DNA from: Patescibacteria group bacterium
GTDB taxonomy: Bacteria; Patescibacteriota; UBA1384; XYA2-FULL-43-10; 1-14-0-10-43-13
Length of the DNA: 64,000 nucleotides
Direction: 5' to 3'
NCBI GenBank assembly: GCA_041671645.1
Contig: JBAZBD010000001.1
Span: 799,234-863,233 of the forward strand
Under the pieces are notes generated by a model. The model saw nothing but the letters and a program-made list of their open reading frames with translations, searched no databases and was not told the origin of the DNA. Position 1 is the first letter of the stretch, and every line of letters starts with the position of its first letter. Below, piece by piece: positions 4,447 to 48,213 of this stretch. A program made the position numbers and the translations under genes.

Positions 4447-6402
4447 CTATTCATACCTCAAAGCTTCCATCGGCGAAAGCTTGCTCGCTCGTCTAGCCGG
4501 ATACACACCAGCCAATAATGAGACTAATGTTGTGACCACAATCATTTCTAAGGCAAAGAGCATTGGGGTAGCGAATATATTGAGACTGCCATCAATTGAG
4601 CTAACCTGCATTAAATAATTGATCAGAGCATTGATCGATTCCCCAAAAATCCAAGCGCCAACAACGCCAGCGATAGAACCAGTCAGACCGAAAAGTAAAA
4701 CTTCATACTCAAAAATCTTTTTGATGTCTCGGTTCGTGGCACCGATCGCCTTCATCGTACCGACCTCGTGTGTCCTCTCAAGCAACGAAATGGTCATGAT
4801 ATTGATAATTCCAATCAAGGCAACCATCAGAGCCACACCGCCGATAATACCTAAGATTATTTCTGTGATAAAAAAGATCTTGTCGACTTTCTTGATTAGA
4901 TCAACGACAGAGGTGGTCTGATAGCCAAGGTCGTCGATAGCATCCCTGGCGGCCTCCACATGCTTCCGATCGCTCACTTTCGCCTTGAGAGAGCTATATA
5001 TCGTGGTCTCATTGATCTTGGCCAATTCGTCGATAGGTAGGAATATCGCCGCGACAAGTTCATCATTGGAAACCCCGACGATTTTCTTTTTTGAGGTAGT
5101 TTCGTGAATGCTGGTCAAATCATTTGTATCCTTCGGCACGACCAAAAACGTAAGGTCCACCGTCTTGTTCAAAGCTGATGTCGGCTCCTTGATATCAAAA
5201 TTTTTGAGTGCTGCTTTGGATATCACTATCTCGTCATTTTCATCAAAACCTTCGCCTGCCACGGCGTACACTCCTTCAAAGGAGAGGGCTGACGCCTCGA
5301 GACCATAGGCGATGACCTGCTGAGCGCTGCTATCAATGGCGATTCTGGCAGTCGAAGTGATCGAAGGACTGACTAGGGTCACGTTTTGCACGTTTTTGAG
5401 CTCGAGGAGGGCGGTCTGATCCAGATGTTTAGTCGAATTTTTGTCGACATTTACATTTATCGTAACGAGAGAATCAAGAGAGGCAAGCTGATTTGAGGTA
5501 ATATTTTGCAAACCCATCCCCAAAGAAACGAGGGTGACGATAGACCCAACCCCCAAAGCTACGCCCAAGGCCGTCAGAAGTGTCCGCATCTTTTTGCTTA
5601 TGAAATGAAGTCGGGAAATCCGCAATATTTCCAGAAAACGAAGAGAGCCCCTCTTCTTTGGCACAAAATATTTCAAGCCATCATCTTCTAGATTATCGGG
5701 TGCAAGCACGCTTCGGGTCGCTTCGCTTTTGACAATCTTGCCATCCTTCATATGCAAAATTTTGTCACCGTAGTGAAGAAAATCCGGATTGTGAGTAACT
5801 AAAACGACCGTCCTGCCCCACTTCGTGCTGATGGTTTTGATCATTCTCATGATTTCAAGCCCCGTCGGCTCGTCCAAATTGCCGGTTGGCTCGTCCACTA
5901 GCAAAATCCAAGGATTGGCGACCAGTGCTCTAGCGATGGCGATCCTTTGTTGCTGTCCCCCAGAGAGTTCCACGGGCTTGTGATTCGCGCGGTCGCTCAA
6001 TTCCACCACAGAGAGCAATTCGCTCGCCCGTACATAAGCTTTTTTGCGGTCAACTCCAGAGAGAATCAGAGGCATTGCGATATTATCAATGGCAGAAAGA
6101 GTAGGAATTAAATTAAATTGCTGGAAAACCATCCCGATTTTGGTCCGACGATATTCCGCGAGTTCTGCCTCGGAAAGTGTGTAGATGTTTTGGTCATGCA
6201 CCCAAACTTGGCCGGCGGTCGGCTTGTCCAGTCCTCCCATCAAGCTAAGCAGGGTCGTCTTGCCGCAACCAGACGGACCGTAAATGACAACAAACTCTCC
6301 CGGCATGATATCAGTCTCAACACCCTTCAAGGCTTCAATATATTGATCTCCTACAAAAAAAGTCTTCTCGAGACCGGAAATTTTGATCACTGGTTTAGTC
6401 AT
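4447..6402 (-). CDS. Fused ABC transporter of MacB/FtsX type, with an N-terminal ATPase and a C-terminal 4-TM permease carrying a large extracytoplasmic domain.
   Basis: Walker A GPSGCGKTT, signature LSGGQQQR, Walker B LLVDEPTGNLD and a MacB-like permease topology. The start is trimmed to the ATG at 6402 (MTKPVIKISGLEK). Confidence 0.8.
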   Translation of the reverse strand: MTKPVIKISGLEKTFFVGDQYIEALKGVETDIMPGEFVVIYGPSGCGKTTLLSLMGGLDKPTAGQVWVHDQNIYTLSEAELAEYRRTKIGMVFQQFNLIPTLSAIDNIAMPLILSGVDRKKAYVRASELLSVVELSDRANHKPVELSGGQQQRIAIARALVANPWILLVDEPTGNLDEPTGLEIMRMIKTISTKWGRTVVLVTHNPDFLHYGDKILHMKDGKIVKSEATRSVLAPDNLEDDGLKYFVPKKRGSLRFLEILRISRLHFISKKMRTLLTALGVALGVGSIVTLVSLGMGLQNITSNQLASLDSLVTINVNVDKNSTKHLDQTALLELKNVQNVTLVSPSITSTARIAIDSSAQQVIAYGLEASALSFEGVYAVAGEGFDENDEIVISKAALKNFDIKEPTSALNKTVDLTFLVVPKDTNDLTSIHETTSKKKIVGVSNDELVAAIFLPIDELAKINETTIYSSLKAKVSDRKHVEAARDAIDDLGYQTTSVVDLIKKVDKIFFITEIILGIIGGVALMVALIGIINIMTISLLERTHEVGTMKAIGATNRDIKKIFEYEVLLFGLTGSIAGVVGAWIFGESINALINYLMQVSSIDGSLNIFATPMLFALEMIVVTTLVSLLAGVYPARRASKLSPMEALRYE

Positions 6403-6664
6403 CGTTTCTCTTCCTGGCCAAAATTTGTTTGAGTTGATCCTCGATGAGCAATAAATCATGCATTGACTCGAACACTGAGAAAGCAAGAGCGAAAACGGCG
6501 ATGGCCGATATCAGCAAACCAGCTATGACCAATATTTTCTTGAGCAGCGAGGCGTCAGGGAAATTAACCAACAGCGATATGACGAATATCAATATCAAGG
6601 CGGCGATAATAATGCCTATAATCAAGACGAGGTAAGAGCCAAATTTTATTAGAAATCTTTTCAT
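6395..6664 (-). CDS. Small two-TM membrane protein, 89 aa.
   Basis: Two hydrophobic helices. It overlaps the ABC transporter start by 8 nt and sits between the FN3 protein and the transporter. Confidence 0.4.
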   Translation of the reverse strand: MKRFLIKFGSYLVLIIGIIIAALILIFVISLLVNFPDASLLKKILVIAGLLISAIAVFALAFSVFESMHDLLLIEDQLKQILARKRNDD

Positions 6665-6666
6665 AA

Positions 6667-7386
6667 TTAGCTATTAAACCATTTCGCAAAGCCCTCAAAG
6701 GCACGCGACAACGCATCGATAATCACTTGGAAAATCGAAAGATCTTTGGCTGGATTTTTGGTCACAAACATCTGATCATCTGACTCGGCAGAATCAGTCG
6801 CGCCCTTGTTCACCGCCTTGATCTTCAGATGATATGTAGTAGCTGGTTTGAGTTTGTCCAGAATAATGGTATGACTCTGGTTTAGGCTCTCCTCTACCGC
6901 GGTCTCTGAGCCATATGATAGAGTTTCGCCATAAAACACCTGGCCGGTCGAGAGTATTTCTGTCTTGAAGGTCACAATCGCTTGAGATTCCGTCTTGCTA
7001 GTCGCGCCAGCTTCGATTTTGATTGCGGTGACTAAAGGCCTCCCAATCACGTCAATCGCCGAGGCGGAAGTAAACGAAATATTTGTGTTTGACACACGAT
7101 AAATATACGCGGCCAATGCAGTCACGTTTGAATCCATGTAGAAATTCAAATCGGTTTGGCCAAGCGTTGAATATGTTTTGCCTCCGTCCCCGCTCCTCTC
7201 GACGGTGACTGTGCCCTTGCCTTTCGGCCACGACAGAGCAAAGCCCGCCGTGTCCTTGGTCGAAATATTCGAAACTGTCAATCTGTCTTCAGCCGAAACT
7301 AATCCGATCTGGAAGAGGCTTATCAGTGCAGCAAGACCCAGGGCGACTAACCATTTTTTCTTGTTTAGAAACATATCTTTTTCCAT
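6667..7386 (-). CDS. Secreted protein with two FN3-like domains, 239 aa.
   Basis: Signal peptide (LVALGLAALISLFQIGLVSA) followed by FN3-like beta-sandwich sequence. It lies 3 nt downstream of the giant gene. Confidence 0.55.
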   Translation of the reverse strand: MEKDMFLNKKKWLVALGLAALISLFQIGLVSAEDRLTVSNISTKDTAGFALSWPKGKGTVTVERSGDGGKTYSTLGQTDLNFYMDSNVTALAAYIYRVSNTNISFTSASAIDVIGRPLVTAIKIEAGATSKTESQAIVTFKTEILSTGQVFYGETLSYGSETAVEESLNQSHTIILDKLKPATTYHLKIKAVNKGATDSAESDDQMFVTKNPAKDLSIFQVIIDALSRAFEGFAKWFNS

Positions 7387-7389
7387 TTG

Positions 7390-10300
7390 TTATTTATCGC
7401 GATCGATCTCTATCTTCCTTGAAACAGTTTGGAGCTTCTCCTGGGCATCCATATGCGTAGCGTCAGAAGGTTTGTATCCAGCTTTGGCAACCAGGAGTTT
7501 GTATTTGCCCTTTGGCAGGACGGTTGAGAATTTGCCCTTTTCGTTTGTGACTGCTGTTCGAATTAATCTTTTGCCTTCGCCGTCCATGATTCTGACTAAT
7601 GCCAATGAAACTCCCGAGTGATTGACGCTATCTAGGACATTGCCCCAAGGTGAGACTTTGACGAAAGACTTGATGTTGACGTACCAAAGCAGTGGGAAGA
7701 GCAGAGCTGAGACCAGGGTGACCGTGTCACGGTGACTGTGAGCCAAGCTATTCAGGATAGAGACGGTGCCAAAAATCAGGAAGCCGAGGGAAACGTAGAC
7801 CAATACTTTTTCGACAACCCCGATTTTCTCGATAAATGAAAATCTCTTGGCGATGCTCTTGTCGTTCATCGAAAGCAAAATATTTGGTACGATCAGTCCT
7901 TCTTGCTCGCTCTTAACCTCGATGATCTGACCCTTTTTGTAGAAACCTGGGGCTTCAGAAACTTCATATAGATCTTTGGTCACCTCAATCTCATATTTGC
8001 CTGGATCAGCGACAAAGCTGAAGTTGCCTTCGATATCAGAATATGTATTGGCTACCGGCCTCTTTGAGAACGAGCCAGGGAAAGTTTGAGTTAATTTGAA
8101 GAGCGTCAGTTTGGCTTGAGCGATTGGGATATAAGTGCCAACCTCAAGTACTCGGCCCCACTTGCGACGGCTTTTCTTGGTGCCGAGAGAGGCAAGGGCG
8201 AAGATCAAAGAGCGAATGTATTCAGGAAGTGAGAATAGAGTGGCGGCATTGGCCAGTGGAGCGGCGGCGGCAGAGATAATCGCTATGCCAGCGACAGCAG
8301 CGGTGCTGGCTGGAGTAGTTGTCGATGTTGGTATGCCAAAGACTACGGGTTGGCCTGAATTGTTGACGCCCACGATTTGCATCTGACCAATAATATCGCG
8401 AACTTTCATGGCTGTGCCAGAGAGATTGGAGATAACAGTATCTAGGACCGATTGCTCCTTGAAAATATCCTTGGTGGCGAAAGTAAAGTCTGTCGATTCG
8501 GCAGTTTGGCCATATTTATCTTTGGAAATGACAGCGAAATGGTAAGTTTTGTTGAAGTCCAAATCGGACAAAACAACTGTATGGAAAGAGTTGAGCCCAG
8601 TATCAACCTCGGTCGTGTAAGGGTATGGAGCAGAAGCGCCATATTTGACTTGAGTGGTGGCTGGAACGGTAGTTTTCCAAGTGATGGTGGCTTGAGCCTT
8701 CTCTGACATCAACTCGCTAGGAGTTGCCTTCACGTCTGATATCTCCAAAGTGCCCTCGCCTGGCTCATCTGGCGGCAGGATAACACAGCCAGAACAATCT
8801 ACAACCGTAGTTGTCTGGAACTCAGCTGCCATACTAGCTGTCTGGTTCTTGGCTAGATCAAAAGAGAATACGGAGTAGTTGAATTGGGTATTTGGCGTGA
8901 CTGTGTCGACATAAGAAGCGTAGCCAGAAGCGTCGACCTGGACGCCAGAGGTTGATTCAGAAATTATATTGTTGCCGTTTTTGACGATAGTGTAGCCGAG
9001 CAACCCAGAGCCAGTGTCAGTACTGGCCTTCCAGCGAAGCATCACTCGGTAGTCAGAGTTGACCCGATCAGAGATGTCGAAAGCTTCTACCTTTTCTAAT
9101 GATGATGGGAGGACCGTATCTAAGATGAAGGTAAGTTCCTCTGACCAAGCGAACTGATTGCCTAGATTATCGTTTGCGGCCACTCTGACGTAGTAAGTGC
9201 CGTCGGCCAGAGCACTGGCACCATCCAAGGTCAGAGAATTTGAAGGAGAAGTCAGCGTAGAGAGAGACAGAGCGTCATTTGCGTTGGCGCAGCCAGAAGT
9301 CTTGCAGATCTTGATACTGTAATTTAAAATTCCTGAATTTGTATCTGTTGCGGCTGGCCAAGTCAAAGTGACGGCTGGCTGATTGTAATATTCAATGTTG
9401 TCGATAGTGTTGGTCTTACCAGATACCGTTGGCTTGCCAGGAGCTGTTGGCTTGTCGCTGTCTGGCTTGCCAGAAGCTTGATTGGAGGCGGCTGAATAGT
9501 TGTCGACGCTATCGATAGCTTCAACTTTGTAATAGTATGTGACACCGCTTGTGACGTTGCTATCAATGTAAGTGGCAGTCGAAGATAGAGTCGTATAAGC
9601 GATCTTGTTCGTACCGATATTTGGTGTGAAATCGGCCTCGGTGGAACGGAAGATAGCGACATTGGCGAAGTCTGTGTCGGTCGGATTGACCCAAGAGAGC
9701 GAAACAGAAGCGCTAGCAGAGAGAGCGGTCAGATTCGTCGGTGCGGATGGCGCTGTGATATCTAGGATAATTGATGCCGAAGCAGTCGGCGACTCATCAC
9801 CATCGATATCTTTGACTTTCAGGTAAACCGTCTTCATCCCGTCAACAGTAGGAGCGGCCAAAGTCCATGACTTGCTGGTTGAGAATGTTTCATACTCGCT
9901 GCCAGAGAAATCAGGAGAATTTGAGACCTTCATTTGTGTGCCAGTGCTAGAAGAAAGCGTAAGTGTTTGATCTATTTGATTTGTCCTAGCCGAAGAGAAT
10001 GAGATCGTGCCAGTCGGCGGGAACCATTTGTTGGTATTGCCGAGATTGATCGAATTTGAAGGATCGATGACCGCACTGCTTAGATTCTTGGAGTTTTCGA
10101 CAGAAAGATAGGAAGTAGAGGTCGAGCCCTTTGGATCAATCTTCCATTGATCTGTACCTGTGCCGCCAGATCTACTGAGCGTGATATTTCCAGCAGAAGT
10201 TCCGTTCAAGCTTAATGCACCGTTGACCGTCTGAGTCGTATCAGAAGCGAAACTAATTGTTCGAGCCGCAGACGCTGTGGCAGATAGATTATTGAAAGTG

Positions 10301-25300: not shown

Positions 25301-27273
25301 TCAGTATCAATCTTCATGTCAGACTTTGGCGCTGTCTCTTGCCAGACAAAGCTTGAATCCAAGCTGCCTTCGATCTTTTTGGCTTCGACTGCGACAACCT
25401 TGTCTTGGCCAGTCTCATCTTTGACGACTTCACCAGTTGAGGCATTTACATCAAAAGCTTCTGGCTTGTCTCTGAATTTGAGATCGTCTTTGACGACGAC
25501 AGTCTTGTTTTCTTTGGTCTCTGGGTCGGTGACGACAACACTTCCTTCTTTCCCGCCATCAGTCTTGGTCACATTCCACTGGAAATTCTTCGGCGCGTCT
25601 TCGCCCTTGATTGTCTTCCAGAGACGTACACCATACTCAGAGATGTCAAATTCAAATTTGAGGTTACCGTCATCGGTTGTGACCTGGCTATCCTCAGCCA
25701 AAATCTGTGGTGCAATCCATTTGGAAAGCGCGTTTCTGGTATCTTCGGCCATCTTCTGGTCAGGAGTGTTGATATCGGCCCAAGCCACTTTGCTGTCAGT
25801 TCCCTTTGATTTTGATAAAACTGGATTGCCATCGACGTCTTTCAGGGTCACCGTATATTTGTCGCCAGTTTGTCGAGACTCGATTTCATAGCCAATCTTG
25901 TCTTTGAAAACTTTGACAGTAGAGGGCATCTGGTCAAAAAGCACATATTCGGGCGTATCGATGGAATGATTTGGGTTGATATCCTTCCAGCTTGAGTCAG
26001 CCTTGGCATAATCTTCTTTGTAGTGGACAAGGCCGGTATAGGACTCTAGAGTCTTGGTGCCGTTCTTGTTGTCGATTGTCTTGGTAGTCTCTGTGCGATC
26101 AGCGACAATCTCATTTGGATTGGCCAAAATCTGGTCAGTGCCGTTGTTTGAAATAGTAGTATTCTTCTGGCCCTCTTCTTTGGCGATGACAAATGAATAT
26201 TCCTGGCTCCATGGCGACCAAGCGCCAACAGAGTCCTGATAGCGAACGCGAGAGTAGTAGGTTCCTTCGGTGAGTAGAGTTGTTAGCTTGATATTTGTCA
26301 GTTCGTCTTTGGGCTCTGTCTTTGTCTGATCGAAGATCGGAGAAGCATAATCGCCAGATTTGGTCGAAATCTGCCACTCTGAAGCGTTTTGCGTGTCATT
26401 GTCGATATCAAGATAAGAGCTAGCGCTTAGGGTCTGAGTATTTCTAAACAAGCTTTTGTCAGCAGTGAACGAGAGACCGGTTGGTGTATTTGGAAGTCTA
26501 GAGTAGAGCAAGGTCAAAGAGTGCAAAACAGGCGAAAGACTAGCGTCGCCAGTCGAAAGGGTCAAGCGTATGTAGAGAGTCTCGGAATCGGCCATCTCAA
26601 GGACATCGCTCGAAAACAAAATGTTGTCAGTAGAAAATTCCTTTTTGACAGCACCGCCGTTGAGTACTTCGCTGGCCTCGATCGAAAGCCAATCGACAAA
26701 CTCACCCTTGGCCGGGGTGTAGGCCAAAATCGCGTTGCCAGATTCCTGGTACTGATTTTGTGTAATATCTGAGTCTAACTTCGCACTTTGGGAAAGAGAG
26801 AGAGAATTGGGGTTATCGGCTGTCGAAAGTCCAGAAATAGTCCAACTCTGCCAAGCTTCCTGTGTGCCCCAAGCCACTTGTGAAGAGGCGAAAGTGCGAA
26901 TGACGCTGGTAGCAAAAACGGAGGTGAAGATAAGGGCCACGATGCCAGACATGTAGCCGGAGAGTGAAACCCAGTGAATTGCAGAAGCAAACGGGCTCAT
27001 GTGCCACTTGTAGTACCATCTGAATTTCATCCGAAGATTGTTGTGGAGGGTGGCGAAGACTGGAAAAGTAACCTTGGTCGAACGCTGGATCAAAATGATT
27101 TCACGTTCAAGCTGAGCTTCCTTCTTTTGGAGCTCTTTTTGCTTCTCCGCGACAATCACCTCTTCTTTGGTGAGACCTTCAATCGCTGCCTTGTCCTGAG
27201 GCAACAAAGTGTACTTCTCCAAAGGTGCTTTTTTGGAAAAATGACTGCGGAAAAATTTGCGTAGGCCCTTCAA
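7390..27273 (-). CDS. Giant cell-surface protein (adhesin-like), 6,627 aa. From N to C it has a cytoplasmic coiled tail and TM signal-anchor, many FN3 domains, a YVTN 7-blade beta-propeller, WxGGG..NW beta-helix repeats, Listeria-Bacteroides repeats, DUF285 repeats and a C-terminal TM with CarbopepD_reg-like modules.
   Basis: Single uninterrupted ORF. TTG start at 27273 with an AGGAGG RBS 4 nt upstream. The TM MSGIVALIFTSVFATSVI sits about 115 aa from the start. Recognisable repeat classes are listed in the findings. Confidence 0.8.
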   Translation of the reverse strand: MKGLRKFFRSHFSKKAPLEKYTLLPQDKAAIEGLTKEEVIVAEKQKELQKKEAQLEREIILIQRSTKVTFPVFATLHNNLRMKFRWYYKWHMSPFASAIHWVSLSGYMSGIVALIFTSVFATSVIRTFASSQVAWGTQEAWQSWTISGLSTADNPNSLSLSQSAKLDSDITQNQYQESGNAILAYTPAKGEFVDWLSIEASEVLNGGAVKKEFSTDNILFSSDVLEMADSETLYIRLTLSTGDASLSPVLHSLTLLYSRLPNTPTGLSFTADKSLFRNTQTLSASSYLDIDNDTQNASEWQISTKSGDYASPIFDQTKTEPKDELTNIKLTTLLTEGTYYSRVRYQDSVGAWSPWSQEYSFVIAKEEGQKNTTISNNGTDQILANPNEIVADRTETTKTIDNKNGTKTLESYTGLVHYKEDYAKADSSWKDINPNHSIDTPEYVLFDQMPSTVKVFKDKIGYEIESRQTGDKYTVTLKDVDGNPVLSKSKGTDSKVAWADINTPDQKMAEDTRNALSKWIAPQILAEDSQVTTDDGNLKFEFDISEYGVRLWKTIKGEDAPKNFQWNVTKTDGGKEGSVVVTDPETKENKTVVVKDDLKFRDKPEAFDVNASTGEVVKDETGQDKVVAVEAKKIEGSLDSSFVWQETAPKSDMKIDTDVIYYPNTHTEVTSVDGYTYSSRSNWDWASIRSGGYSAADDGTSGDMAAIAAGNNAAWAYVSRSAFLFDTSSIPNTATISAANFSVYGAYKMGDPSGWNSSLGLYSSNPSSNTSLQASDYDTFGTTAFASAIPYASYNDMGYNDFAMNASGLAAISTSGVTKLGLRITADAADSQPTINADYDSVYFYGYFAENDGTALDPKLTVTYSGGNTISGTIYDGIGGSVLGADIPISITSNGGGKMSGVTGSGGTFSFSGVELVAGKPVTIFIDNDPSYNSGSIVYLPESAIDKTGLNMYRYKTTLYSDYTAGAITNADLAIADDCGCFSDFSVSGSTLSTMYDLYVTQYTMFTPGGNVNAYGMYNDGIVEMEANNLTLSSSFYQAGGEFNAGSGTHILATPTFSGGTFNANTSNLTLSNYQITVSTGATFNGDTATITMLNASFAMSGGTFTSTSGTLTITTDSNGYYSDYTWNISGGTFNNANGTFKIGSIPANSSYNPYTFTNVPPIYNYIYANTGDGTVGYSAGFTVSNDFSVTNGYLSPSYAVVVGRDAAISSGAYFSGSDITIGRNLTTTAGGTFSPYVVTFDTAQESVISGDNAPSSFTCATAGKTLSFAADSTQTISGALTIQGAAGNNIVMKLNGTAGSGQWKINANTSGMSPWTVDRVTYSDSNNLNSRPIAPTNSTASGSNNTNWLGSHISGTAYQGIGQGNVGSGQNVSASVNGGAKQTMATDGNGAFDFVAGGVTAGTVITIFFEDGNYSAGNIVTVAAGSSDITGLSLYSYLVSLTYEDSGPMTNTILATADNCSDANGKILFSVDGSNVLSTSYSLHIPASKVYTPGASVGSSGAYIYGTINATATFTSSDMGSFYVESGAVFNAGTGTVTVGGLYLNGGTFNSNSSTLVLNGYSTTIISGTFNSNTATVTIKSYNFYLYGGTFNAPAQVLTLDANDVATDFLFDMSGGGTFVNNDGAVWINNINSANTYYVKCGSNQFYQLSANSANGTVVTQDTLLVEHSLNITLANTFNAYGYNVETKHFAQDTGTFSAPNGTMKVSGDFIRDGGTFSNNYGTVELNSASLAQVVGGSTEFYNFTMTTSTARTISFNPGTNQTVTGQWTATGIADNLLTLQRNGTGAQWEITPSTSMDNQWTVDYVSVSNSKNNAANPISPTNWTKGVNVTNWDVLPGCVWDGGGTGNNWSTAENWTLDTVPDAACDVVFDSTSTKASTLDSGFTAHIKSLSINTGYTDTVTLGADLNDDGALNLAEGTLSAGNYTINIGGSWNNTGGTFTKGTSTVNFNGTAAATVASNSNDFYNITVAGQAGTISTPYAWIANSGATTTTKIDTSSNAVTTHTIGAAEFGVAVDNSGFIWQTNRSNGTLTKINASTNSVDASITIGSDPYGVAIDSNGFVWVASGTNNVAYKINPTTNAIAATVNVGARAYGIAADSSGFVWVANFNSNTVSKINATTDTVVATITVGTQPAGVAVDLNGFVWVPNYGTSDVSKINPTTNTVVATVSAGTNAFGVAADANGFVWVSNLGTNTVTKINTATNAVAATVTVGSAPCGVAVDASGFVWVTNSSANSVSKINGSTNVVAATINTGLAPYSLGDFTGYAYKKIVLSQGGTGSITLSDALVASNNLTVSSGTFTSGANAVTVGSFIQTDGTFAAPSTTMSVANDFTHTAGTFTHNSGTVVFNGGDSSIQDISGDTTFSAVTIQPGATTTKTLKFEASKTQTIAGALTVSGASGRVISLNSSSDGSTWSIDPQSTRAISYASVKDSINANATAIYTDNSGSNVTSAGNNVNWFASAPPNAASTVAITSIDSTLFTVTWTDNSSDETGFKVFTAAGNADCSAASYSGTPDYTTAADATSQAITGKTINTQYCAKVIATNADGDSDPAFAAPKYTLANTPDAPTVTAYDWSAASGNNMAAVINVNSNPAGTEFALSCNATPDSWLQGDGTCGASKVWKTKVNWETGTVNYLKNLTSNTLYSVKALARNGDTTETSASSAGTATSAPAQPASLTHTANTASQISWDWADVAGASSYRLLKSSDDSDVGSPSASAYDQGSLSANTQYTNYVRAYNGVLGQASSTASAYSSIEAASGITFGTIATDSIQVSATGTFTNLSVGSSGLYITKSAGTGTGFASWNTNNNTLTNTGLSPNTQYSYTAQARNGDGETTAATDSISKYTLAAAPDAPTLAASSASVINIKLTDNSSTTYAIAVSADGGSTWNYVKHADGTNQASEDWQNYAAWGGASGFDNVSLSPNVQYTYKVKARNGDNTETAFSSTAAKYTLANVPSAPTVDATSSSSLTVKINQNSNPAGTNYAVYNDTLSKYVQADGSSDTSAVWQDYTTWGGASGVTNTGLTANTEYTYKVKAKNGDNVETALSSGTAQTTVDVAPTEPNTVAIGTLTTTGFTVTWTDASSNETGFKVYTAAGNADCSAASYSGTPDYTTAAGAISQAITSKSINTQYCAKVIATNAIGDSAPAYAAPKYTLAAAPDAPTLAASSASVINIKLTDNSSTTYAIAVSADGGSTWNYVKHADGTNQASEDWQNYAAWGGASGFDNVSLSPNVQYTYKVKARNGDNTETAFSSTAAKYTLANVPGTPTFGTVTSTTIPVLIAQNSNPSNTTYAIKVVYGATTKYVQANSTLGDSAVWQAYATWGSSKTVTGLTANTLYTFSVAATNGDSVATAYSATADQSTLAVYTLTYNSGANGSVIGSSPQTVDHGSSGSEVVATPAANYHFVKWSDNDSTNPVRTDTNVTANITTTASFAIDTHTLAYSAGANGSIVGTTPQTIDHGASGSEVTATPAANYHFVSWSDDVMTAARTDSNVAGDIAVTASFAIDTHTLTYSAGANGSIVGTTPQTVDHGSSGSEVTATPAANYHFVSWSDDVMTAARTDLNVADNISVTATFAINTYTLTYNAGSNGSVVGTSPQTVDYGANGSQVTATPAAGYYFVDWSDANTTAARTDTNVTVDITVTANFALQFLSRWDTSKTSSGSSTATQIHLPLESTGTYNFIVDWGDSSTSTITTWNQAETTHTYASGGIYDLKIGGTITGFRFNNAGDKLKLSQISQFGPLRLGNSDGYFSGTKNLKITATDVLNTTGTTTMKNSFRDSGIDTVPSMNSWDMSAVTDMYCMFESSSLFNQDISSWNTGAVTSMYAMFYNAFVFNQNIGSWNTTNVINMAYMFESAWAFNQNISSWNTGSVTTMREMFWNNSAFNQNISNWNTGAVTNMNQMFYSAAAFNQNLASWNVVNVTDMTNMFSSSALSNANYSNILIGWSAQAVKSNVTLGAATKKYTLGAAADGRAHLVSAHTWTITDGGPSAFVLTYSAGSGGSIVGITPQTVDYGANGSEVTATPAANYHFTSWSDGVLTAARTETNVITDKSVTASFAIDTHTLTYSAGANGSVVGSTPQTVNYGANGSQVTATPAANYHFVSWSDDVMTAARTDSNVAGDIAVTASFALDAPASATGVTITPTSSTTFNVTWTDNSSIETGYKVYTADGNADCSAASYSGTPDTTTSADAVSQAIASKSVNTQYCAKVVATNSGGDSAPAYAAPKYTLANVPTFTTVAGDYSDADLWHLDTTINASANPAGTNYYIQYSTNDGAGAGNFYDPNAMAWQTETTYLFKKDKDNVDLAANTQYWMKVKAKNGDNVETIYTSTSVADVTPPAAPTALNITNICTTKATTTWTAATGADSYTVSYGTDTAATNIGTLTTATTSKQITGLSNTTTYYWKASATSTANGTGPYAAPSSFETSNCGVESPDDFAGSAASTTQINWTWSDITSEETGYKVEDSAHTSLSGNLDAGSTSYNETPLSANTGYTRHVNVYNGGGSQDSNSDTVYTLAAVPGQPTVTTLSSSRIRITVDKNGNPNANTRYAIAVSADAGSTWNYVKNADGTTQVSEDWQLYADWGGDSGFANTGLTKNTNYIYKIKARNGDNVATDFGATNNTTTLDNFSVTISSDGSGSGSLDQVTQIVDAGADVTTTATAAASSDFVSWTGCDTVATNICYLTDVSADRSITAVFTIKTYTITINEAGTGTGDLDQVTQDVNYGANLTVVATADISSTFTGWSGDATGTGDASFTNITANKTITATFTIKTYTITINTTGTGMGDLDQATQTVNYGANLTVVATPAASSTFAGWSGDATGTGDASFTNITANKTITATFTIRSYTVTISKAGNGTGDLDQSTQVVTYGANLTVAATPAVSSDFTGWSGDAAGTGSAALTNITADKTITATFTLKTYTISSSAGSNGAISPLGDNLANYGTSPEYTITPSDGYYISNVVVDGSAISGTLPSSYTFTNVTATHSISVSFAANNTCVWDGQAADDNWSSADNWTANIIPSATCDVIFDATSTKDSTLDASFTSHIKSLSVNTGYSGTISANTTLNDDGDFTLNAGTFTANAQTLNIAGSLTMTADPTAVFNEGTSTINFNPTTTGKTITTNGQVLGNLIFNGVDAVIDPNVTLLNNNISLLANHTLTAGWTFQDNVSAQSLTANAGTLVDGGKSVNIAGDIIIANKVGVLASTGVWTQSSSGNIANPDMHNTFGSLVAAGSGITSTMTAGVSVGLGSGSAGAFTVGPGTLMGIGKAVIVYSRSNDSVTVNNLTADSRLGVLAIYPQIADMTQKAITLPSNFATTFSFQQDPTGILTATGNFNFGNSNVIVAKDRTTTPAGYVDMSTHNLTCKNLTIGSTSTNEYATIPGYLKLGSGTTNIAGSLSHGNASNIGNKLDLGSGTINVGGNWDTSNITVTPGTSTVDLTGTGTLQSKGYAAAPYDFYNLKLAHNGNTTNAISSVTTSNVLYTYAGGTLNGDNRYAFRMYKSDGDAVVNTGANFTASTFLVYRPSSDVTVAGQNFGQGSVAYSGVTNDVAITLSSDVTTTRDIYAYSITTGKRTTLNAVDNNLTARNLYLAYPVYGVGTANLGSGTHEFTNGIFRYTGSTDDTNVLNLESSSVSIGGNIDFTGMTVDPGTSTITLNGIGGQTVAGSNTFNNLSATASAARTISFASDTTQTVNGALSLNGTSAGNITLSRSGGTGTDQWKIDPKGSTSTSYLSVENSKNLSSAVIDPSNSINLGNTNKWFPPTGTISFSSARTNQIDQTLTLSSSTGTQMKVSNSPDFSGSEYETFSTSKSWTLAAPTVDGMKTVYLKVKDIDGDESPTASASIILDITAPSAPTNLTALSASASVSLSWVNPTDTDFANVAIFRSTEADFTPNIGTNKIAYTTLSSTATYIDSNVTSGVTYYYKVEAIDSVDNYSAASNQASGKPDSDKPTAPGKPTVSGKTNTIDNIEYYNQPAVTLTWPAATDTNSGILNYSIKICKTSGCANANDALSLSTLTSPSNSLTLDGASALADGTYYVRVAANDNLGNQFAWSEELTFILDTVLPSSLEKVEAFDISDRVNSDYRVMLRWKASTDTGSGLLGYTIVKNGNNIISESTSGVQVDASGYASYVDTVTPNTQFNYSVFSFDLAKNQTASMAAEFQTTTVVDCSGCVILPPDEPGEGTLEISDVKATPSELMSEKAQATITWKTTVPATTQVKYGASAPYPYTTEVDTGLNSFHTVVLSDLDFNKTYHFAVISKDKYGQTAESTDFTFATKDIFKEQSVLDTVISNLSGTAMKVRDIIGQMQIVGVNNSGQPVVFGIPTSTTTPASTAAVAGIAIISAAAAPLANAATLFSLPEYIRSLIFALASLGTKKSRRKWGRVLEVGTYIPIAQAKLTLFKLTQTFPGSFSKRPVANTYSDIEGNFSFVADPGKYEIEVTKDLYEVSEAPGFYKKGQIIEVKSEQEGLIVPNILLSMNDKSIAKRFSFIEKIGVVEKVLVYVSLGFLIFGTVSILNSLAHSHRDTVTLVSALLFPLLWYVNIKSFVKVSPWGNVLDSVNHSGVSLALVRIMDGEGKRLIRTAVTNEKGKFSTVLPKGKYKLLVAKAGYKPSDATHMDAQEKLQTVSRKIEIDRDK
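12757..12850. repeat. About 95-bp perfect intragenic repeat, copy 1. It is the coding sequence of a 72-aa Listeria-Bacteroides-type repeat unit.
   Basis: The sequence gattgtaaatgtggccgtaattgtcttgttagctgtgatgtt.gtgaaagatgcgtcccctgtgccagttgcgtcgccagaccaacca recurs 216 bp later. Confidence 0.7.
12972..13068. repeat. About 95-bp perfect intragenic repeat, copy 2.
   Basis: See copy 1. The period is 216 bp, or 72 aa. Confidence 0.7.
17489..17828. repeat. 340-bp perfect intragenic duplication, copy 1. It encodes an FN3-type segment.
   Basis: The stretch from ggtacattagccaaagtatacttggcagcag to gcaagggtgtatttgg is identical base-for-base to 18413..18752. Confidence 0.85.
18413..18752. repeat. 340-bp perfect intragenic duplication, copy 2.
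   Basis: Identical to 17489..17828. The period is 924 bp (308 aa, roughly three FN3 domains). Confidence 0.85.
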
Positions 27274-27312
27274 CTTCCCTCCTGCGACAACCAGTCTTAT
27301 TATTATGAGTAT

Positions 27313-27341
27313 ATTTTAACAAGAGAAGTGAACTCGTTCAA
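27313..27341 (-). promoter_or_regulatory. Putative promoter of the giant gene (TTGAAC-N17-TAAAAT), with a GTGAAC-tc-GTTCAC inverted repeat overlapping the -35 element.
   Basis: Minus-strand sequence cccttgaacgagttcacttctcttgttaaaat, about 35 nt upstream of the RBS. Confidence 0.25.
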
Positions 27342-27429
27342 GGGCAAAAGAGGGTCTTGGCTGTTGATAAGATACAGAAAAATAGAACAAATTTATTTGC
27401 CTCATATTTGTCTTTGCTAGACTAGATAA

Positions 27430-28158
27430 TTAGTAAATTTTCTTTTGCAAATTTTGACGGATTTTCCACGAATCAACTATCATTTTGAGCCCATCTTTCA
27501 ATGGGTTGACAGTCGAATGTGGATCATCGTGCCAGGTGATCCCCTCCTCCTTTATTTTGTATCCTAATTTTTTGGCAATAGCTAAAACTTCAATATCGAA
27601 AGAGAAGTCAAATATGGTCAGCTTCTCGAAAATCGCTCCGGCCGCCTCTTTCGAAAATAATTTGAAACCGCACTGTGTGTCTTTGATCCCAGGCGTCACA
27701 AGGGCTTGGATCATCCAGTTCAAAGCTCGGCTGCCCGCTCTTCGAGTGAATGACTGTGGGATGGCTAATTTGCCACCTTTGCAGTATCTGGAGCCGATGA
27801 CGACATCGTATTTATCGATATGGGCAAGAAGTTTGTCGACCTGTTCGATTGGGGTAGAATTATCAGCATCGGCGAATAACACATACTGGCCCTTTGCCAA
27901 TTTGATTCCGTCCTGCACTGCACCACCCTTCCCGCGGTTCTGTTCGCCTTCGTAGATCACCAGATTCGGAATTCTGTCCACAAAATGTTCGGCGGAGCCA
28001 ACCGTGTCATCAGGGGATGCATCAATTGCAACTATCGTTTCGACGATGAAGTCTTTGGTTTTAACATATTTTTCTATCGCTTCCAGAATAACGTGGATCC
28101 GTTTTTCTTCACGATATGCCGGAATCACAATTGATAAATAGATTTTCTCGTCCATCAA
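27430..28158 (-). CDS. GT2 polyprenol-phosphate glycosyltransferase (DPM1/GtrB-like), 242 aa.
   Basis: Matches the dolichol-P-mannose synthase family through LSIVIPAYRE, the DAD motif (FADADNSTP) and GSRY. Confidence 0.8.
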   Translation of the reverse strand: MMDEKIYLSIVIPAYREEKRIHVILEAIEKYVKTKDFIVETIVAIDASPDDTVGSAEHFVDRIPNLVIYEGEQNRGKGGAVQDGIKLAKGQYVLFADADNSTPIEQVDKLLAHIDKYDVVIGSRYCKGGKLAIPQSFTRRAGSRALNWMIQALVTPGIKDTQCGFKLFSKEAAGAIFEKLTIFDFSFDIEVLAIAKKLGYKIKEEGITWHDDPHSTVNPLKDGLKMIVDSWKIRQNLQKKIY

Positions 28159-29993
28159 AGTCCTATTTTGTGATTAATATTTGGTCTGGGATAATCAAGA
28201 TATTTGATCGGATACGGAGATTTGGGCGGATGTTGCTTCAAGTCTTCCGGAGTAATGTTGTAGACCAGGATAGAGCCACCAATAATCGCCTTTGGCTTAA
28301 TATCGTCAAGCCAGTTGTACGACCATTTGCCCTCTTCTGGACCACGTAATTTTGACAATTGATAGAAAGTCGCAGAGACAGCCAACCAGCCCGTAGTGGG
28401 TCCGTAGCTAGAATGCCAGTCTGTACGACTTGGCAAGTAATAGGTGGGGACTGAACCGAAATAATCCACCTTAATATTCGTGATATTATTGTCGCCTACG
28501 TATTTCTTGAGTCGGAGAAAGTCCTGGCCCCAATCAAGTGAAGAGTCAACTAGCCTGGTGTAGCGCTTGTCTTTGGGGGTGAGTTCATTGAAATACGCGA
28601 TGAAATTAGGGAAATTTGAGATTGTTGAAACAGCTAAATATGCCAGAAGAATAACTAGGGCGATCTGCATCCGACCCAGTTTCCGCCAATTCCAGCTGGG
28701 ATTCACAATTGGATAAATTGCATAACCGATCATCAATAATACGAAGGGAATCGTTGGCATGAGATGACGAATACCAATGTTCAGCGAACCCTGCAATGTG
28801 ATAGCCCAGTAAATAACCCATGGCACGATTAGGAGCGAGAGCATCCATTTGATTTCTTTTTGCTTTGGCCAATTACGAATTATCGAATAAACAGAAAAGA
28901 AAAACATAGCTATGATTGGTAAGGGAGTTTTGAGCAACCAAGCGACCGGGAAATACCAGGGGATTGATTTGTCAGAAAGATGACCCCAAATAAAGGTTGC
29001 ATTGCCACCGCCAACACGGCCGATAACTAGGAATATTCCCAGGATATAGTGGCCAAGTGCTCGCAAGTACGGATTATTTTCAAATAAGTGGAGAAAGTTT
29101 CTAAGGGGCAAAGTCCTCGCATCGGACGTCATATTTGTGTCTATCAATTGATGCTCGATAGCAGGCGGAGTCTTCCAAACCAAAGGTAGGTAAACCAACC
29201 AGACGACCACCAATGAGATCAGACTGACATATACTAGAGGCATGAAATTTGCAACAAAATTATGCCGGAAGCCTTTCTCCTTTCTATCCAAAACGGCCCG
29301 AACTACCACGAGAATGAAGAAAATCGGGAACAGCAAAACCCCAGAAAACTTTAGGAGTTCAGCTATCCCGAGCGCAACTCCGGCAAGCAAAATGCTCGAC
29401 AAAGTTTTCTTAGTGACCGCCTTGTCAAAGGCATACGTCGCCAAGACAAAACCAAATGCCGCCGCTACGTCGGTAGTGACTAGCCGGCCGTGAGCGATGA
29501 CGTCAGGGTAAAGCGCATATAGGAAAAGGATGACTACGCCGACTTTCCAGCCGAAGAGCTCAATCGCCCACTTGAAGAGCAACAGGCCCAGCCCAATCAT
29601 GAGCAGCATCATCGGAAGTCTGGCAAGAGAGAATACTTCGGCAGGATCGTTGCCTTGACGATAAATCATGCTCCAGCCCGATTCCCATTGGTTTATGTCT
29701 TTGAAGCTTGAATCGTCCTCTGGACCCTTGATCTTACTATTCATGACGAGAGGAACACCGGCCAGAACTTTCGCCAGAGGCGGATGCTCTGGATTCAATC
29801 GATAATCTTGATCTTTTAAGTAGGTATAGCCAGCGGGAATATGTGCGATTTCATCGACAATAGCAGAATCACCCGGCGTGTTTCCGATCCCTCGGGAGGA
29901 AAATAGGGCGAGCAAGAACATAAACAGGAGAATCCCCGCAGGCACGAAATATTTATATTGTATTTTACTGCAGATCCTCTTTAGCAATTTCAT
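28155..29993 (-). CDS. GT-C glycosyltransferase of PMT_2 / GT39-like type (phospholipid-carrier-dependent, YkcB/ArnT-like), 612 aa.
   Basis: DEIAHIPAGYTY...NPEHPPLAKVL is the DE-x-H plus PPL signature of PMT/ArnT-type GT-C enzymes. About 11 TM helices and a C-terminal soluble domain are present. It overlaps the neighbouring genes by 4 nt and 29 nt. Confidence 0.7.
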   Translation of the reverse strand: MKLLKRICSKIQYKYFVPAGILLFMFLLALFSSRGIGNTPGDSAIVDEIAHIPAGYTYLKDQDYRLNPEHPPLAKVLAGVPLVMNSKIKGPEDDSSFKDINQWESGWSMIYRQGNDPAEVFSLARLPMMLLMIGLGLLLFKWAIELFGWKVGVVILFLYALYPDVIAHGRLVTTDVAAAFGFVLATYAFDKAVTKKTLSSILLAGVALGIAELLKFSGVLLFPIFFILVVVRAVLDRKEKGFRHNFVANFMPLVYVSLISLVVVWLVYLPLVWKTPPAIEHQLIDTNMTSDARTLPLRNFLHLFENNPYLRALGHYILGIFLVIGRVGGGNATFIWGHLSDKSIPWYFPVAWLLKTPLPIIAMFFFSVYSIIRNWPKQKEIKWMLSLLIVPWVIYWAITLQGSLNIGIRHLMPTIPFVLLMIGYAIYPIVNPSWNWRKLGRMQIALVILLAYLAVSTISNFPNFIAYFNELTPKDKRYTRLVDSSLDWGQDFLRLKKYVGDNNITNIKVDYFGSVPTYYLPSRTDWHSSYGPTTGWLAVSATFYQLSKLRGPEEGKWSYNWLDDIKPKAIIGGSILVYNITPEDLKQHPPKSPYPIKYLDYPRPNINHKIGL

Positions 29994-31500
29994 TTTGTCC
30001 CTCCAAAATATTTGACCTCTTTGTTGATTTCGTAGTCACTCTGAAAACTTCAAGATATTTACCAAACATCAGCCGAGTCTGTGATTCCATAGCTGGGATG
30101 GAAGAAAAGAAAATGTTGGAAATCGGCATTACAAATGGGGTCAGGCACCAGTCGAGTAGAATTCGACCAAATGGTTTCCTGCCTTGTCTCTTCGGCATCA
30201 GAAGGGTAGAAATCACAAGTGTGACAATCATACCGAGCCATGCGATAGTCAGCATTTTGATATACACTCCGCGAAAGCTATATGCCAAAATGTCTCCCTG
30301 AAAGGCAGAGCCGAAAAAAACCGGAATCCAGGCTGAAGTGATCAGGACCAACGATGTCGTCGACCAGGAGATATGTGATTCCCATAATATCAAAGCGTTC
30401 GCCCACCTGTCAAAAAACGGTATTTTGTGGTTTCCTATCGTATTTTCCATCACAAAAGGGATGTCTGACACACCCCAAGCCCAACGTTTTTTCTGCAAAT
30501 ACTGCTCACGCATAGTATTCCTGAAAGTGTCAGCCAAGACTGCGTCCTGATAGATTGGAGTATACATCGGTACCACTTCGTGACAGCCGTCAAACCGATA
30601 ATAAGTTCGCCAAAACTGATGGCCGTCTTCCACAATCGTCTTGGTCGACCAGAAATCTGTTTGGACTAGTGCGGCTAGACTCTGTGCATGGGCAGAGAAA
30701 TTACGAAGCCGAGAAGGTCTTGTCGTAACAATTAATTGCCAAAAAGACGAACCCATCGCCATCAACCGATTCATCATCGGCACGTCCCAAATATTGTTGA
30801 AAAACATAGGCAACGGCTGAAAACTTTTGTGGATGGGATCGGGATCAGTGACATATTTATAAGTCAGATCGAGGAGATAATTTTTGTCCATGATATGGTC
30901 CGAATCCATCGTTGTCACGACCACATTTTCGTAAGGAATTTTCTCTTTGTCGATTTGTTCGAGTACCTTTCTGGCCGCGTAGGTGATGTTCCCACCTTTA
31001 CCGATCACTTCACCGGGAATATCCTTGGGATGCATTACGGTCATGAAAAGATGAAACTTCTTGCCGTGCTTTTCGGTTAATATTTTGGAATACTCCCCTG
31101 CCCGTTCTTTGTCGCGCTCCTCCGTCCCCAAGACATAAATAACATGATCCTGCGGGTAATTCGAAGTGAGAACGGAACGAATAGATGATTCTAGAATTTC
31201 AATATCTTCCTTGTATGTCGGAACAATCACAAGATGATATATCTCCTTCCATTTGCCGTCCGTCTGGTCTAATTTTGCTTGCCAATCAGTTTTCATGTCA
31301 CGTCGATAATTTCGATAACCCAGGATTAACCGATAAGACATCACAAATGTTCTTATCAACCAGTAAGTTAGATAAAAAATCATGTAAATAGCAAATACTT
31401 TTGGCGAGACTAGGACAACGACGAAAGGCAAAAGCAATATTGACCAAGAAATCAAACCGGGGAGTACTTCAAACAATCTTTTGTATTTCCAGGTGTTCAT
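29965..31500 (-). CDS. Membrane-embedded processive GT2 (cellulose/chitin/hyaluronan-synthase-like), 511 aa.
   Basis: D, DxD (TMDSDH), (T)ED and QKKRW (QxxRW) motifs, with TM helices on both sides of the catalytic domain. Confidence 0.7.
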   Translation of the reverse strand: MNTWKYKRLFEVLPGLISWSILLLPFVVVLVSPKVFAIYMIFYLTYWLIRTFVMSYRLILGYRNYRRDMKTDWQAKLDQTDGKWKEIYHLVIVPTYKEDIEILESSIRSVLTSNYPQDHVIYVLGTEERDKERAGEYSKILTEKHGKKFHLFMTVMHPKDIPGEVIGKGGNITYAARKVLEQIDKEKIPYENVVVTTMDSDHIMDKNYLLDLTYKYVTDPDPIHKSFQPLPMFFNNIWDVPMMNRLMAMGSSFWQLIVTTRPSRLRNFSAHAQSLAALVQTDFWSTKTIVEDGHQFWRTYYRFDGCHEVVPMYTPIYQDAVLADTFRNTMREQYLQKKRWAWGVSDIPFVMENTIGNHKIPFFDRWANALILWESHISWSTTSLVLITSAWIPVFFGSAFQGDILAYSFRGVYIKMLTIAWLGMIVTLVISTLLMPKRQGRKPFGRILLDWCLTPFVMPISNIFFSSIPAMESQTRLMFGKYLEVFRVTTKSTKRSNILEGQNEIAKEDLQ

Positions 31501-31829
31501 TGGTGAGATAGATAATAAATTTCCAAAATCATTACAAGTGCTACTGCCAAGATATTGCCGATGAAGAGGAGATAGCCAATTTCGCGTTCTCTTTTGAAGG
31601 AAGAAAAGGCCAAAACAGTGTTGAGAATCAGAATGATGAAAAGCAGTTTGATTGGGTAAACACCGATTCTGATATAGACAAAAATGTCTGGAGAGCTAAG
31701 CAAGAAATGCCAGATAAGATAATCTACAAACGACCAGATTAGGGAAATAGAAAACAAATACCGATTCACGATATCGTCAACCAGAAATTCCTTCAGGAAC
31801 GGACCAAGGGTGGTTATATATTTTTTCAT
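31497..31829 (-). CDS. Small polytopic membrane protein (possibly a GtrA-like flippase partner), about 110 aa.
   Basis: Three or four TM helices, 4-nt overlap with the processive GT2 gene. The start is trimmed to Met9 to avoid overlap with tRNA-Thr. The GtrA assignment is inference from context only. Confidence 0.35.
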   Translation of the reverse strand: MKKYITTLGPFLKEFLVDDIVNRYLFSISLIWSFVDYLIWHFLLSSPDIFVYIRIGVYPIKLLFIILILNTVLAFSSFKREREIGYLLFIGNILAVALVMILEIYYLSHQ

Positions 31830-31842
31830 ATTTTTTGTATTT

Positions 31843-31918
31843 TGGAGCCGCATTCGAGATTCGAACTCGAGACCTCCACTTTACGAAAGTGTTGCTCTAC
31901 CAGCTGAGCTAAAGCGGC
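31843..31918 (-). tRNA. tRNA-Thr (anticodon CGT).
   Basis: The reverse complement folds as a cloverleaf with anticodon loop TTCGTAA, T-loop TTCGAAT and CCA encoded. There is one T-T mismatch in the acceptor stem. Confidence 0.8.
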
Positions 31919-31919
31919 A

Positions 31920-31993
31920 TGGAGCGGGTAGTGGGAATCGAACCCGCGACTCATCCTTGGGAAGGATACATTTTACCACTAAACTATACCCGC
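31920..31993 (-). tRNA. tRNA-Gly (anticodon CCC).
   Basis: The reverse complement folds as a cloverleaf: acceptor GCGGGTA/TACCCGC, anticodon loop TTCCCAA, T-loop TTCGATT, discriminator U and CCA encoded. One C-A mismatch lies in the T-stem. Confidence 0.75.
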
Positions 31994-44205: not shown

Positions 44206-44207
44206 CT

Positions 44208-45257: not shown

Positions 45258-45330
45258 GAGGCCATTATAACAAAAAGAGAGCTCAATACTAGCTCCCTGC
45301 TCCTATTTGATCTCCATCCGTAAATAAAGC

Positions 45331-47018: not shown

Positions 47019-47020
47019 TT

Positions 47021-48196: not shown

Positions 48197-48213
48197 GTTT
48201 GCTTCCCTGACTC

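Follow-up and report, generated by a model that had tools for sequence, protein, structure and literature searches.

Recurrent linkage of giant surface protein, FN3 protein, membrane hairpin and type VII ABC genes beside a separable glycosyltransferase block in a Patescibacteria chromosome

Gene content of the locus

We analysed a 64,000-nt stretch of DNA (the window) from a Patescibacteria group bacterium (GenBank assembly GCA_041671645.1, contig JBAZBD010000001.1, positions 799,234 to 863,233), which holds eight minus-strand genes, one of them coding for a giant surface protein; the bacterium is uncultured and ultra-small. These genes can be described as two adjacent modules. Module A, the glycosyltransferase (GT) block, consists of a small transmembrane (TM) protein, a synthase-like GT2, a PMT-like GT-C enzyme and a GtrB-like GT2. 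Module B consists of a giant or otherwise large protein, a protein with two fibronectin type III (FN3) domains, a two-TM hairpin and a fused MacB-type ATP-binding cassette (ABC) protein. From the gene content, domain families, synteny and fusion patterns observed at this and related loci, we lean towards the view that the two modules are separable, module B being a conserved functional unit and module A a lipid-carrier glycosylation operon.

The eight genes, with the coordinates and spacings collected in Table 1, were reproduced from the open reading frame (ORF) list and its translations. Pfam agreed with the domain calls of the initial annotation, which had proposed a profile hidden Markov model check; the QxxRW GT2 scored below the cut-off, and its motifs are invariant in 13 orthologues. 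For the small TM protein the ATG at 31829 was chosen over the start at 31853 because it avoids tRNA-Thr, and the ABC protein probably starts at M29 (6402).

The giant protein carries at least 10 copies of Flg_new_2, a DUF285 domain, several fn3 domains, an NHL propeller and two C-terminal CarboxypepD_reg domains, and Ser and Thr make up 25.3% of its residues. One TM segment lies near its N-terminus (residues 102-120) and three near its C-terminus, and the predicted topology places the N-terminus in the cytoplasm and about 6,200 aa outside the cell. The C-terminal order is TM 6322-6340, CarboxypepD_reg, TM 6490-6508, TM 6520-6538 and the second CarboxypepD_reg. Residues from about 6177 to 6285 are a paralogue of the second FN3 domain and helix start of the small FN3 protein, and this FN3-plus-helix element is membrane-proximal, sitting just before TM 6322-6340. 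An orthologue of 7,072 aa (locus L087) is 57% identical over window-giant residues 5070-6627, and by tblastn the last 600 residues are 45-47% identical in related loci. The window's own giant protein was not found in the protein collection. A second giant paralogue (P0121; WC227_00005, partial), 50% identical to the window giant over the N-terminal 640 residues or so, lies at the very start of the same contig; the source genome therefore has at least two giant genes. A Shine-Dalgarno sequence precedes the TTG start of the window gene at 27273, and no terminator-like site was found in the 27274-27429 gap. Inside the gene, tandem DNA repeats of 213-216 bp (81-85% matching) occur at 12756-13194 and 16420-16989; they match Flg_new_2 repeat units and are possible sites of length variation and assembly breaks.

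The AlphaFold2 model of the small FN3 protein (predicted local distance difference test score, pLDDT, 79.5) has an N-terminal signal/anchor helix, two sandwiches (37-106 and 119-208) and a C-terminal helix (218-238). In fold comparisons it came closest to tandem FN3 pairs, among them neogenin FN5-FN6 (E 3e-7); its Pfam matches to fn3 and Pur_ac_phosph_N fall below the cut-off. An LNQSHT motif in the second FN3 domain is invariant across the family, and the amphipathic C-terminal helix, with the consensus SIFQIIxxALxxAFxGFxKWFN, is highly conserved, residues I222, A225, L226, A229, F230 and W236 being invariant. An exact-sequence look-up of the window protein gave no match, and tblastn showed 40-41% identity in related loci. 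Full-length matches among 1.84 billion representative proteins were of two kinds: proteins of 234-245 aa that stand alone, and proteins of 464-4,313 aa in which the match occupies the final 200 residues or so.

In the 89-aa hairpin protein, two TM segments are joined by a short outside loop of sequence FPDAS (family consensus YPEAT, with the Pro invariant), and a charged C-terminal tail lies in the cytoplasm. Because the outside loop is so short, the hairpin family must lie almost wholly in the membrane and cytoplasm, a location that suits a modulator of the ABC protein rather than a bridge to the fibre.

The ABC protein gave Pfam matches to ABC_tran (1.2e-32), MacB_PCD (1e-17; 302-519) and FtsX (5e-20; 547-672). 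It is built from a nucleotide-binding domain (NBD), TM1, an extracytoplasmic core domain of about 220 aa and three further TM segments, giving four hydrophobic segments in total, and its Walker A, signature and Walker B motifs (GPSGCGKT, SGGQQQR and DEPTGNLD) are invariant in 28 orthologues. With intact ATPase motifs, four TM segments, an outside domain between TM1 and TM2 and an FtsX C-terminal domain, it belongs to the type VII superfamily. The ATPase domain scores well against the DevA and LolD models. Alignment to the NCBIfam MacB model runs end to end and yields only 297 bits against a cut-off of 966; we thus rejected MacB proper, the ABC protein of the MacAB-TolC pump, on this score and on the lack of an adjacent adaptor gene. 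No HlyD/MacA-type domain was found among the neighbour genes of the window or of 10 related loci.

Table 1. Features of the locus, from the upstream tRNA genes to the lipoprotein gene (ORF numbering follows the window)
Feature	Coordinates	Strand	Characteristics
tRNA-Gly(CCC) and tRNA-Thr(CGT)	31843..31993	-	directly upstream of the GT block; ARAGORN and Rfam
tRNA-Thr	31843-31918		overlaps a longer ORF for the small TM protein, starting at 31853
Small membrane protein	31497..31829	-	110 aa when started at the ATG at 31829; opens the GT block
Membrane GT2 with QxxRW	29965..31500	-	511 aa; processive-synthase motifs D, DxD, ED and QKKRW
GT-C glycosyltransferase	28155..29993	-	612 aa; PMT_2/GT39-like; Pfam
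GtrB/DPM1-like GT2	27430..28158	-	242 aa; soluble; polyprenyl-phosphate sugar synthase type; Pfam
Intergenic gap	27274..27429	-	156 nt, between the GtrB-like gene and the giant gene
Giant surface protein	7390..27273	-	6,627 aa; uninterrupted ORF; TTG start; ORF list
Two-FN3 protein	6667..7386	-	secreted or anchored; 3-nt gap after the giant gene
Two-TM hairpin	6395..6664	-	89 aa; 2-nt gap after the FN3 gene
Fused type VII (MacB/FtsX-type) ABC	4447..6402	-	counted from M29; overlaps the hairpin gene by 8 nt
Lipoprotein	1823..3607	-	weak alpha/beta-hydrolase (lipase-like) matches; possible accessory neighbour

The rest of the window consists of ordinary chromosomal genes, including those for TrpRS, enolase, iPGM, RuvB, QueH, ComEC and DnaK, and wherever an ABC orthologue has a named source, the label is Berkelbacteria or Patescibacteria. 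The window ABC protein is 100% identical to one encoded on an 867,751-bp contig with the label Patescibacteria group bacterium. The window is chromosomal DNA of a Berkelbacteria-type (Patescibacteria/Candidate Phyla Radiation [CPR]) bacterium. Downstream of the lipoprotein gene, a 554-aa ORF (56-1720, minus strand) has no Pfam match and no TM segment.

Recurrence of the surface module

To describe module B in other genomes, we sorted the loci examined into six ABC clades with less than 60% identity between clades; the identities given below for P and L loci are those of the ABC orthologue to the window ABC protein. The large-protein/FN3 arrangement was present in four of the six clades, at ABC identities of 49-74%. 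In the closest locus (P0004, 74%), the ABC gene is preceded by genes for a truncated protein of no fewer than 1,507 aa, for an FN3-like protein of 264 aa and for one of 89 aa. At 59% identity, P0016 encodes a 7,072-aa giant with Flg_new_2 and fn3 domains, proteins of 231 and 97 aa and the ABC protein, followed by L10/L12; in P0025 (57%), where L10/L12 likewise come next, proteins of 5,255 and 1,588 aa are encoded ahead of a 231-aa protein, a 100-aa protein and the ABC protein. In P0035 (54%), a protein of 2,502-3,017 aa that ends in the FN3 module precedes a 91-aa protein and the ABC protein, followed by LepA, and in L098, L111 and L113 (49-50%) a large protein with fused FN3 precedes a 105-aa hairpin, the ABC protein and a lipoprotein. 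FN3 is thus not a separate gene in P0035 or in the L098/L111/L113 clade and forms the C-terminal end of the large protein there. Searches by tblastn with the window proteins established that the module members in related loci are homologues and not merely genes of similar size.

A hairpin homologue lies directly upstream of every ABC orthologue examined, and in all loci examined the two genes either share 4-8 nt or have a single nucleotide between them. In the window, L087 and L090, the FN3, hairpin and ABC genes are spaced by 1-2 nt or overlap by 8 nt. About 80 clusters of ABC orthologues were found at 42% identity or more, few of which carry a source name.

The genes downstream of module B vary from lineage to lineage: tRNA-Pro/VIT1, L10/L12/TGT, LepA or lipoprotein/FeoB. 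The window lipoprotein has homologues (22-28% identity, E 1e-18 to 1e-33) that come immediately after the ABC gene in L098, L111, L112 and L113; in L118 the homologue adjoins the GT block. None was found near the ABC gene in L083 or L087-L090. Because the flanking genes change while the unit persists, and because of the fusions, a functional link is a better account than mere shared gene order. The pattern, read from genome sequence, supports the view that module B is a functional unit.

Two distant loci, L030 (2799-12850) and L015 (1-5857), show a comparable arrangement, in which the MacB-type ATPase and permease genes are split and come straight after genes for large proteins that end in FN3 and an amphipathic helix. 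These loci surfaced incidentally in a Walker-motif scan of contigs that otherwise returned unrelated ABC genes from many phyla. The N-terminal extension of the L030 permease might replace the separate hairpin. One of the two loci is labelled Gammaproteobacteria and has 38% G+C.

Upstream of the most distant hairpin/ABC pair (43%), a stretch of L085 (4368-9701) codes for several secreted proteins with common C-terminal motifs and no Pfam hits, and for a 314-aa protein with a C-terminal TM anchor. This cluster may resemble the WxL/DUF916-type surface-complex clusters.

The glycosyltransferase block and its separability

The small TM protein that opens the GT block has at least two TM segments and no Pfam or NCBIfam match; orthologues 48-54% identical precede the GT2 gene in related loci. 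No GtrA-type flippase was recognised in the window block. Two clusters of orthologous GT-C proteins, P0235 and P0243 (753-771 aa), carry a fused GtrA domain (PF04138). The QxxRW GT2 is divergent, reaching 21.7 bits in Pfam against a cut-off of 23.3, although its motifs D199/D201, E291/D292 and Q336-W340 are those invariant in the orthologues; it has TM segments at both ends and faint matches to CelA and BcsA (E 1e-4 and 0.06). The GT-C enzyme scores above the cut-off for both PMT_2 (36.2 bits, cut-off 26.1) and PMT (26.2 bits), and the acidic pair D47-E48 in its first outside loop is conserved in at least 90% of sequences. Its AlphaFold2 model (pLDDT 87.7) has fungal Pmt4 as the closest solved structure (E 5.5e-8), followed by STT3, ArnT and Pmt1/2, while sequence searches of solved structures with the synthase-like GT2 and the GT-C enzyme gave nothing significant. 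The GtrB-like GT2 matches Glycos_transf_2 (5e-26), and its best NCBIfam matches, AglJ, Dol-P-hexose transferase, PgfS and PpgS, are all far below cut-off.

The pairing of a GtrB-like GT2 with a GT-C enzyme is an established scheme for extracytoplasmic glycosylation from a lipid carrier. Such pairs glycosylate Ser/Thr-rich surface proteins in the Pgf system, which lies beside the adhesin gene cnm (PMC5856776), and in streptococci as GtrB/PgtC2 (PMC12041528). The block looks like a general lipid-linked glycosylation operon, for which the giant protein is a plausible substrate among others. The case for the giant as acceptor comes from its adjacency in 7 of 14 lineages and its 25% Ser+Thr; a broader role for the block is suggested by its additional synthase-like GT2 and by its occurrence independent of the giant gene.

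That independence emerged from a metagenome scan with the GT-C protein, which yielded 26 loci. The four-gene block is intact in about 20 of them (GT-C identity 55-75%), and clustering at 90% identity left 14 informative lineages, the window included. A homologue of the giant N-terminus directly follows GtrB in seven lineages (window, L095, L099-L101, L103, L104, L105, L106), the intervening gap being 64-313 nt in the six related lineages. In three more (L098; L102/L111/L112; L113), a large-protein/hairpin/ABC segment lies convergent about 4.5 kb off, with FeoB and the lipoprotein between the two; L102 is truncated before the ABC gene. No giant gene is nearby in the remaining four (L118, L109/L110, L121/L122, L123/L124). 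Conversely, three homologues of the giant N-terminus have no GT genes within 10 kb upstream. The convergent arrangement was rejected as independent evidence for coupling between the GT and ABC genes, since a single inversion running from the giant to the lipoprotein gene interconverts the arrangements.

The tRNA-Gly(CCC)/tRNA-Thr(CGT) pair lies directly upstream of the block and is co-oriented with it in each of the 10 related loci tested (L097, L099, L101, L103, L104, L106, L113, L118, L121 and L123), with or without a giant gene. As the tRNA pair always adjoins it, the GT block is a stable landmark. Only 13 nt separate tRNA-Thr from the first gene of the block in the window, and it is possible that the tRNAs and glycosylation genes are co-transcribed. 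A tRNA-bounded genomic island was considered and rejected, as the pair adjoins the block in giant-free loci too. No integrase or transposase domain was found in the genes scanned between 56 and 31,853, and the small composition shift in the window tracks the amino-acid bias of the giant protein, which counts against an island.

The modules can also be separated on one contig. On a 460-kb contig of the P0035 genome, about 28 kb separates the GT block from the ABC module, and between the two lies a QueH-RuvB to ComEC-DnaK segment, which the window contains as well. The QueH-RuvB-(RuvA)-S6PP-GT4-GT4 part of the window (43621-50279) is syntenic with L123 12609-21093 of the P0035/P0201 genome; it lies between the GT block and ABC module there and to one side of them in the window. 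The P0201 genome has, in addition, a different fn3 protein of 2,319-2,372 aa (L123 1-7405, minus strand), divergent from the GT block and about 3.4 kb upstream of it, with a Peptidase_C39_2 protein and a LiaF-like small TM protein in between.

Interpretation and relation to known systems

On the reading that we favour, the giant protein would be a Ser/Thr-rich fibre of adhesin-type repeats, held in the membrane at both ends. Its own N-terminal signal-anchor makes Sec the simplest export route, and the ABC protein most likely does not pump it. The small FN3 protein would be a detached copy of the membrane-proximal FN3/helix element of the giant. Type VII ABC proteins transmit ATP-driven motion to an outside domain that acts on a partner, without a cytoplasmic substrate (PMC5985334; PMC7668044; PMC12646458). 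The window protein may work in this manner together with the two-TM hairpin, whose charged tail lies on the ATPase side and which would tune it: as in FtsEX, LolCDE and YbbAP, ATP hydrolysis would move the outside domain, which would act on the FN3/helix base and could thereby assemble, insert or release the anchor or switch the conformation of the fibre. Both the direction of this mechanical work and the acceptor of the glycosylation are inferred. Module A would carry out lipid-carrier-dependent glycosylation outside the membrane and be kept with or without an adjacent giant gene. More tentatively, we propose that these loci may represent an unrecognised class of type VII ABC systems, in which a MacB-fold machine with a hairpin is coupled to CPR giant fibres through the FN3/C-terminal helix and powers their anchoring, release or switching.

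A number of observations weigh against this reading. One clade (P0011, 59%) keeps the hairpin and ABC genes, downstream of MnmA, and neither a giant nor an FN3 gene lies within 10 kb of them; in P0074 (43%), the most distant clade, the upstream genes are unrelated and code for secreted or surface-protein-like products. The examples come from one candidate lineage plus the two distant loci, and shared descent contributes to the pattern. We saw no other contig on which the GT block, a full giant gene and the ABC gene all occur co-oriented. A consensus scan gives the giant gene a promoter-like site of its own, with an extended -10, at 27341-27313, and the junction with the GT block is always gapped. 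A synthase-like GT2 is unexpected for simple protein O-glycosylation. Finally, we infer the putative contact between the ABC protein and the FN3/helix element solely from gene fusion and gene order.

The initial annotation had read the eight genes as a single dedicated system for glycosylation, export and assembly of the giant adhesin, which we now consider unlikely. In its favour, all eight are co-oriented and tightly packed in the window, the GT block directly precedes the giant N-terminus in half of the 14 lineages and lies within about 5 kb of the large-protein/ABC segment in three more, the GT-C enzyme is PMT-like and the giant is Ser/Thr-rich. Against this, the block keeps its tRNA anchor without a giant in four lineages, is some 28 kb from the ABC module in one genome and is missing upstream of three giant N-terminus homologues; the convergent lineages are explained by the single inversion and are not independent, and the 64-313-nt gap that always separates GtrB from the giant gene contains a promoter-like site in the window. 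As a strict eight-gene unit the proposal therefore fails, on the four giant-free lineages, the three giant N-termini without GT genes and P0011. What survives of the argument for a dedicated system rather than a chance neighbourhood is its ABC half, which is borne out by four of six clades and by the fusions, and not the separable, tRNA-anchored GT block; likewise, the order giant, FN3, hairpin, ABC recurs across relatives, and the full eight-gene order was not seen on another contig.

A different account keeps the hairpin and ABC genes together and makes them a general-purpose envelope transporter, serving for instance peptide resistance or the extraction of hydrophobic compounds, to which the giant gene is merely a neighbour in a conserved gene order; the ABC protein might then pair with the lipase-like lipoprotein, as YbbAP does with TesA. 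P0011, where the pair occurs without a giant, fits this account, as do the lipoprotein genes directly downstream of the ABC gene in L098 and L111-L113 and nearby in the window, the related origin of all loci and the fact that MacB relatives in monoderms are mostly resistance or extraction systems (PMC5985334; PMC12646458). We nevertheless think it improbable: the four-gene unit persists while its flanks change between lineages, several of these lineages have the FN3 module as part of the large protein by fusion, large proteins that end in FN3/helix precede split MacB-type genes even in L030 and L015, and the lipoprotein homologue is not found near the ABC gene in L083 or L087-L090. Still further from the data is the possibility that a glycan, either lipid-linked or polymeric, is produced by the GT block and then extracted and exported by the ABC protein, as heterocyst glycolipids are by DevBCA, the giant gene being an insertion between the two. 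The two GT2 enzymes (synthase-like and GtrB-like), the DevA- and LolD-like ATPase domain and the presence of both modules in one neighbourhood in 10 of 14 lineages are in keeping with it. However, the ABC gene is tied to the giant/FN3 side, with no GT-block gene within 10 kb of it in L081, L083, L087 and L090; no ABC gene lies within 10 kb of the GT block in L121-L124, and a DevB/MacA-type adaptor gene is lacking. We give this possibility very little credence.

The initial annotation had also held that the combination was uncharacterised as a unit, and we found no description of it in the searchable literature. No relevant literature was found on a giant protein together with a MacB/ABC protein in Patescibacteria, Berkelbacteria or Saccharibacteria, and a preprint on giant genes (10.1101/2023.11.21.568195) does not treat the giant/FN3/hairpin/ABC arrangement. 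The parts belong to known families, and the combination of giant fibre, FN3/helix, hairpin and type VII ABC protein is apparently undescribed. On the more tentative proposal of a new class, the ABC protein would power the anchoring, release or switching of an organelle with which these cells probably cling to hosts. Attachment to other cells is the presumed lifestyle of ultra-small CPR bacteria, and their giant surface proteins are leading candidates for mediating it. The four-gene unit offers a testable handle on which helix binds which domain and on what ATP hydrolysis changes, and the separable glycosylation operon suggests a surface-glycosylation pathway general to the lineage and not private to one adhesin.

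Several known systems share features with the locus. As in LapA/LapBCE and SiiE/SiiCDF, a repeat adhesin of several thousand residues is encoded beside an ABC protein and small membrane proteins. Type I secretion by LapBCE or SiiCDF uses a six-TM exporter, an adaptor, an outer-membrane duct and a C-terminal secretion signal, whereas the window has a four-TM ABC protein of the MacB type and a giant with an N-terminal signal-anchor and C-terminal TM segments. Membership in this group was rejected, given the MacB-type ABC protein and the lack of adaptor or duct domains in the cluster. The accessory Sec loci (GspB/Fap1/SraP) likewise cluster glycosyltransferases and handling machinery with a very large Ser-rich adhesin; their adhesins are glycosylated in the cytoplasm, and the loci carry SecA2/SecY2/Asp genes. 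Here glycosylation would take place outside the membrane from a lipid carrier, and no SecA2/SecY2/Asp genes are present, so that this membership was rejected as well.

Module A most resembles the Streptococcus mutans Pgf/cnm, streptococcal GtrB/PgtC2 and actinobacterial Ppm1/Pmt systems, in which a GtrB-like GT2 and a GT-C enzyme stand beside a Ser/Thr-rich surface protein. It differs from them in its QxxRW GT2 and extra small membrane protein, in the absence of a detected GtrA and in being conserved without the giant in 4 of 14 lineages. The ABC protein of module B, with its NBD, four TM segments and large outside domain between TM1 and TM2, is like those of FtsEX-EnvC/PcsB/RipC, LolCDE-LolA, YbbAP-TesA and MacAB. 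Unlike these systems, it is encoded without a MacA/DevB adaptor, an EnvC/PcsB-type coiled-coil hydrolase activator or LolA, and its partner genes code for a giant anchored fibre, a two-FN3 protein with a C-terminal helix and a two-TM hairpin. If our reading holds, the fibre and its FN3/helix base would be a new kind of partner for type VII ABC proteins, beyond EnvC/PcsB, LolA, MacA and TesA.

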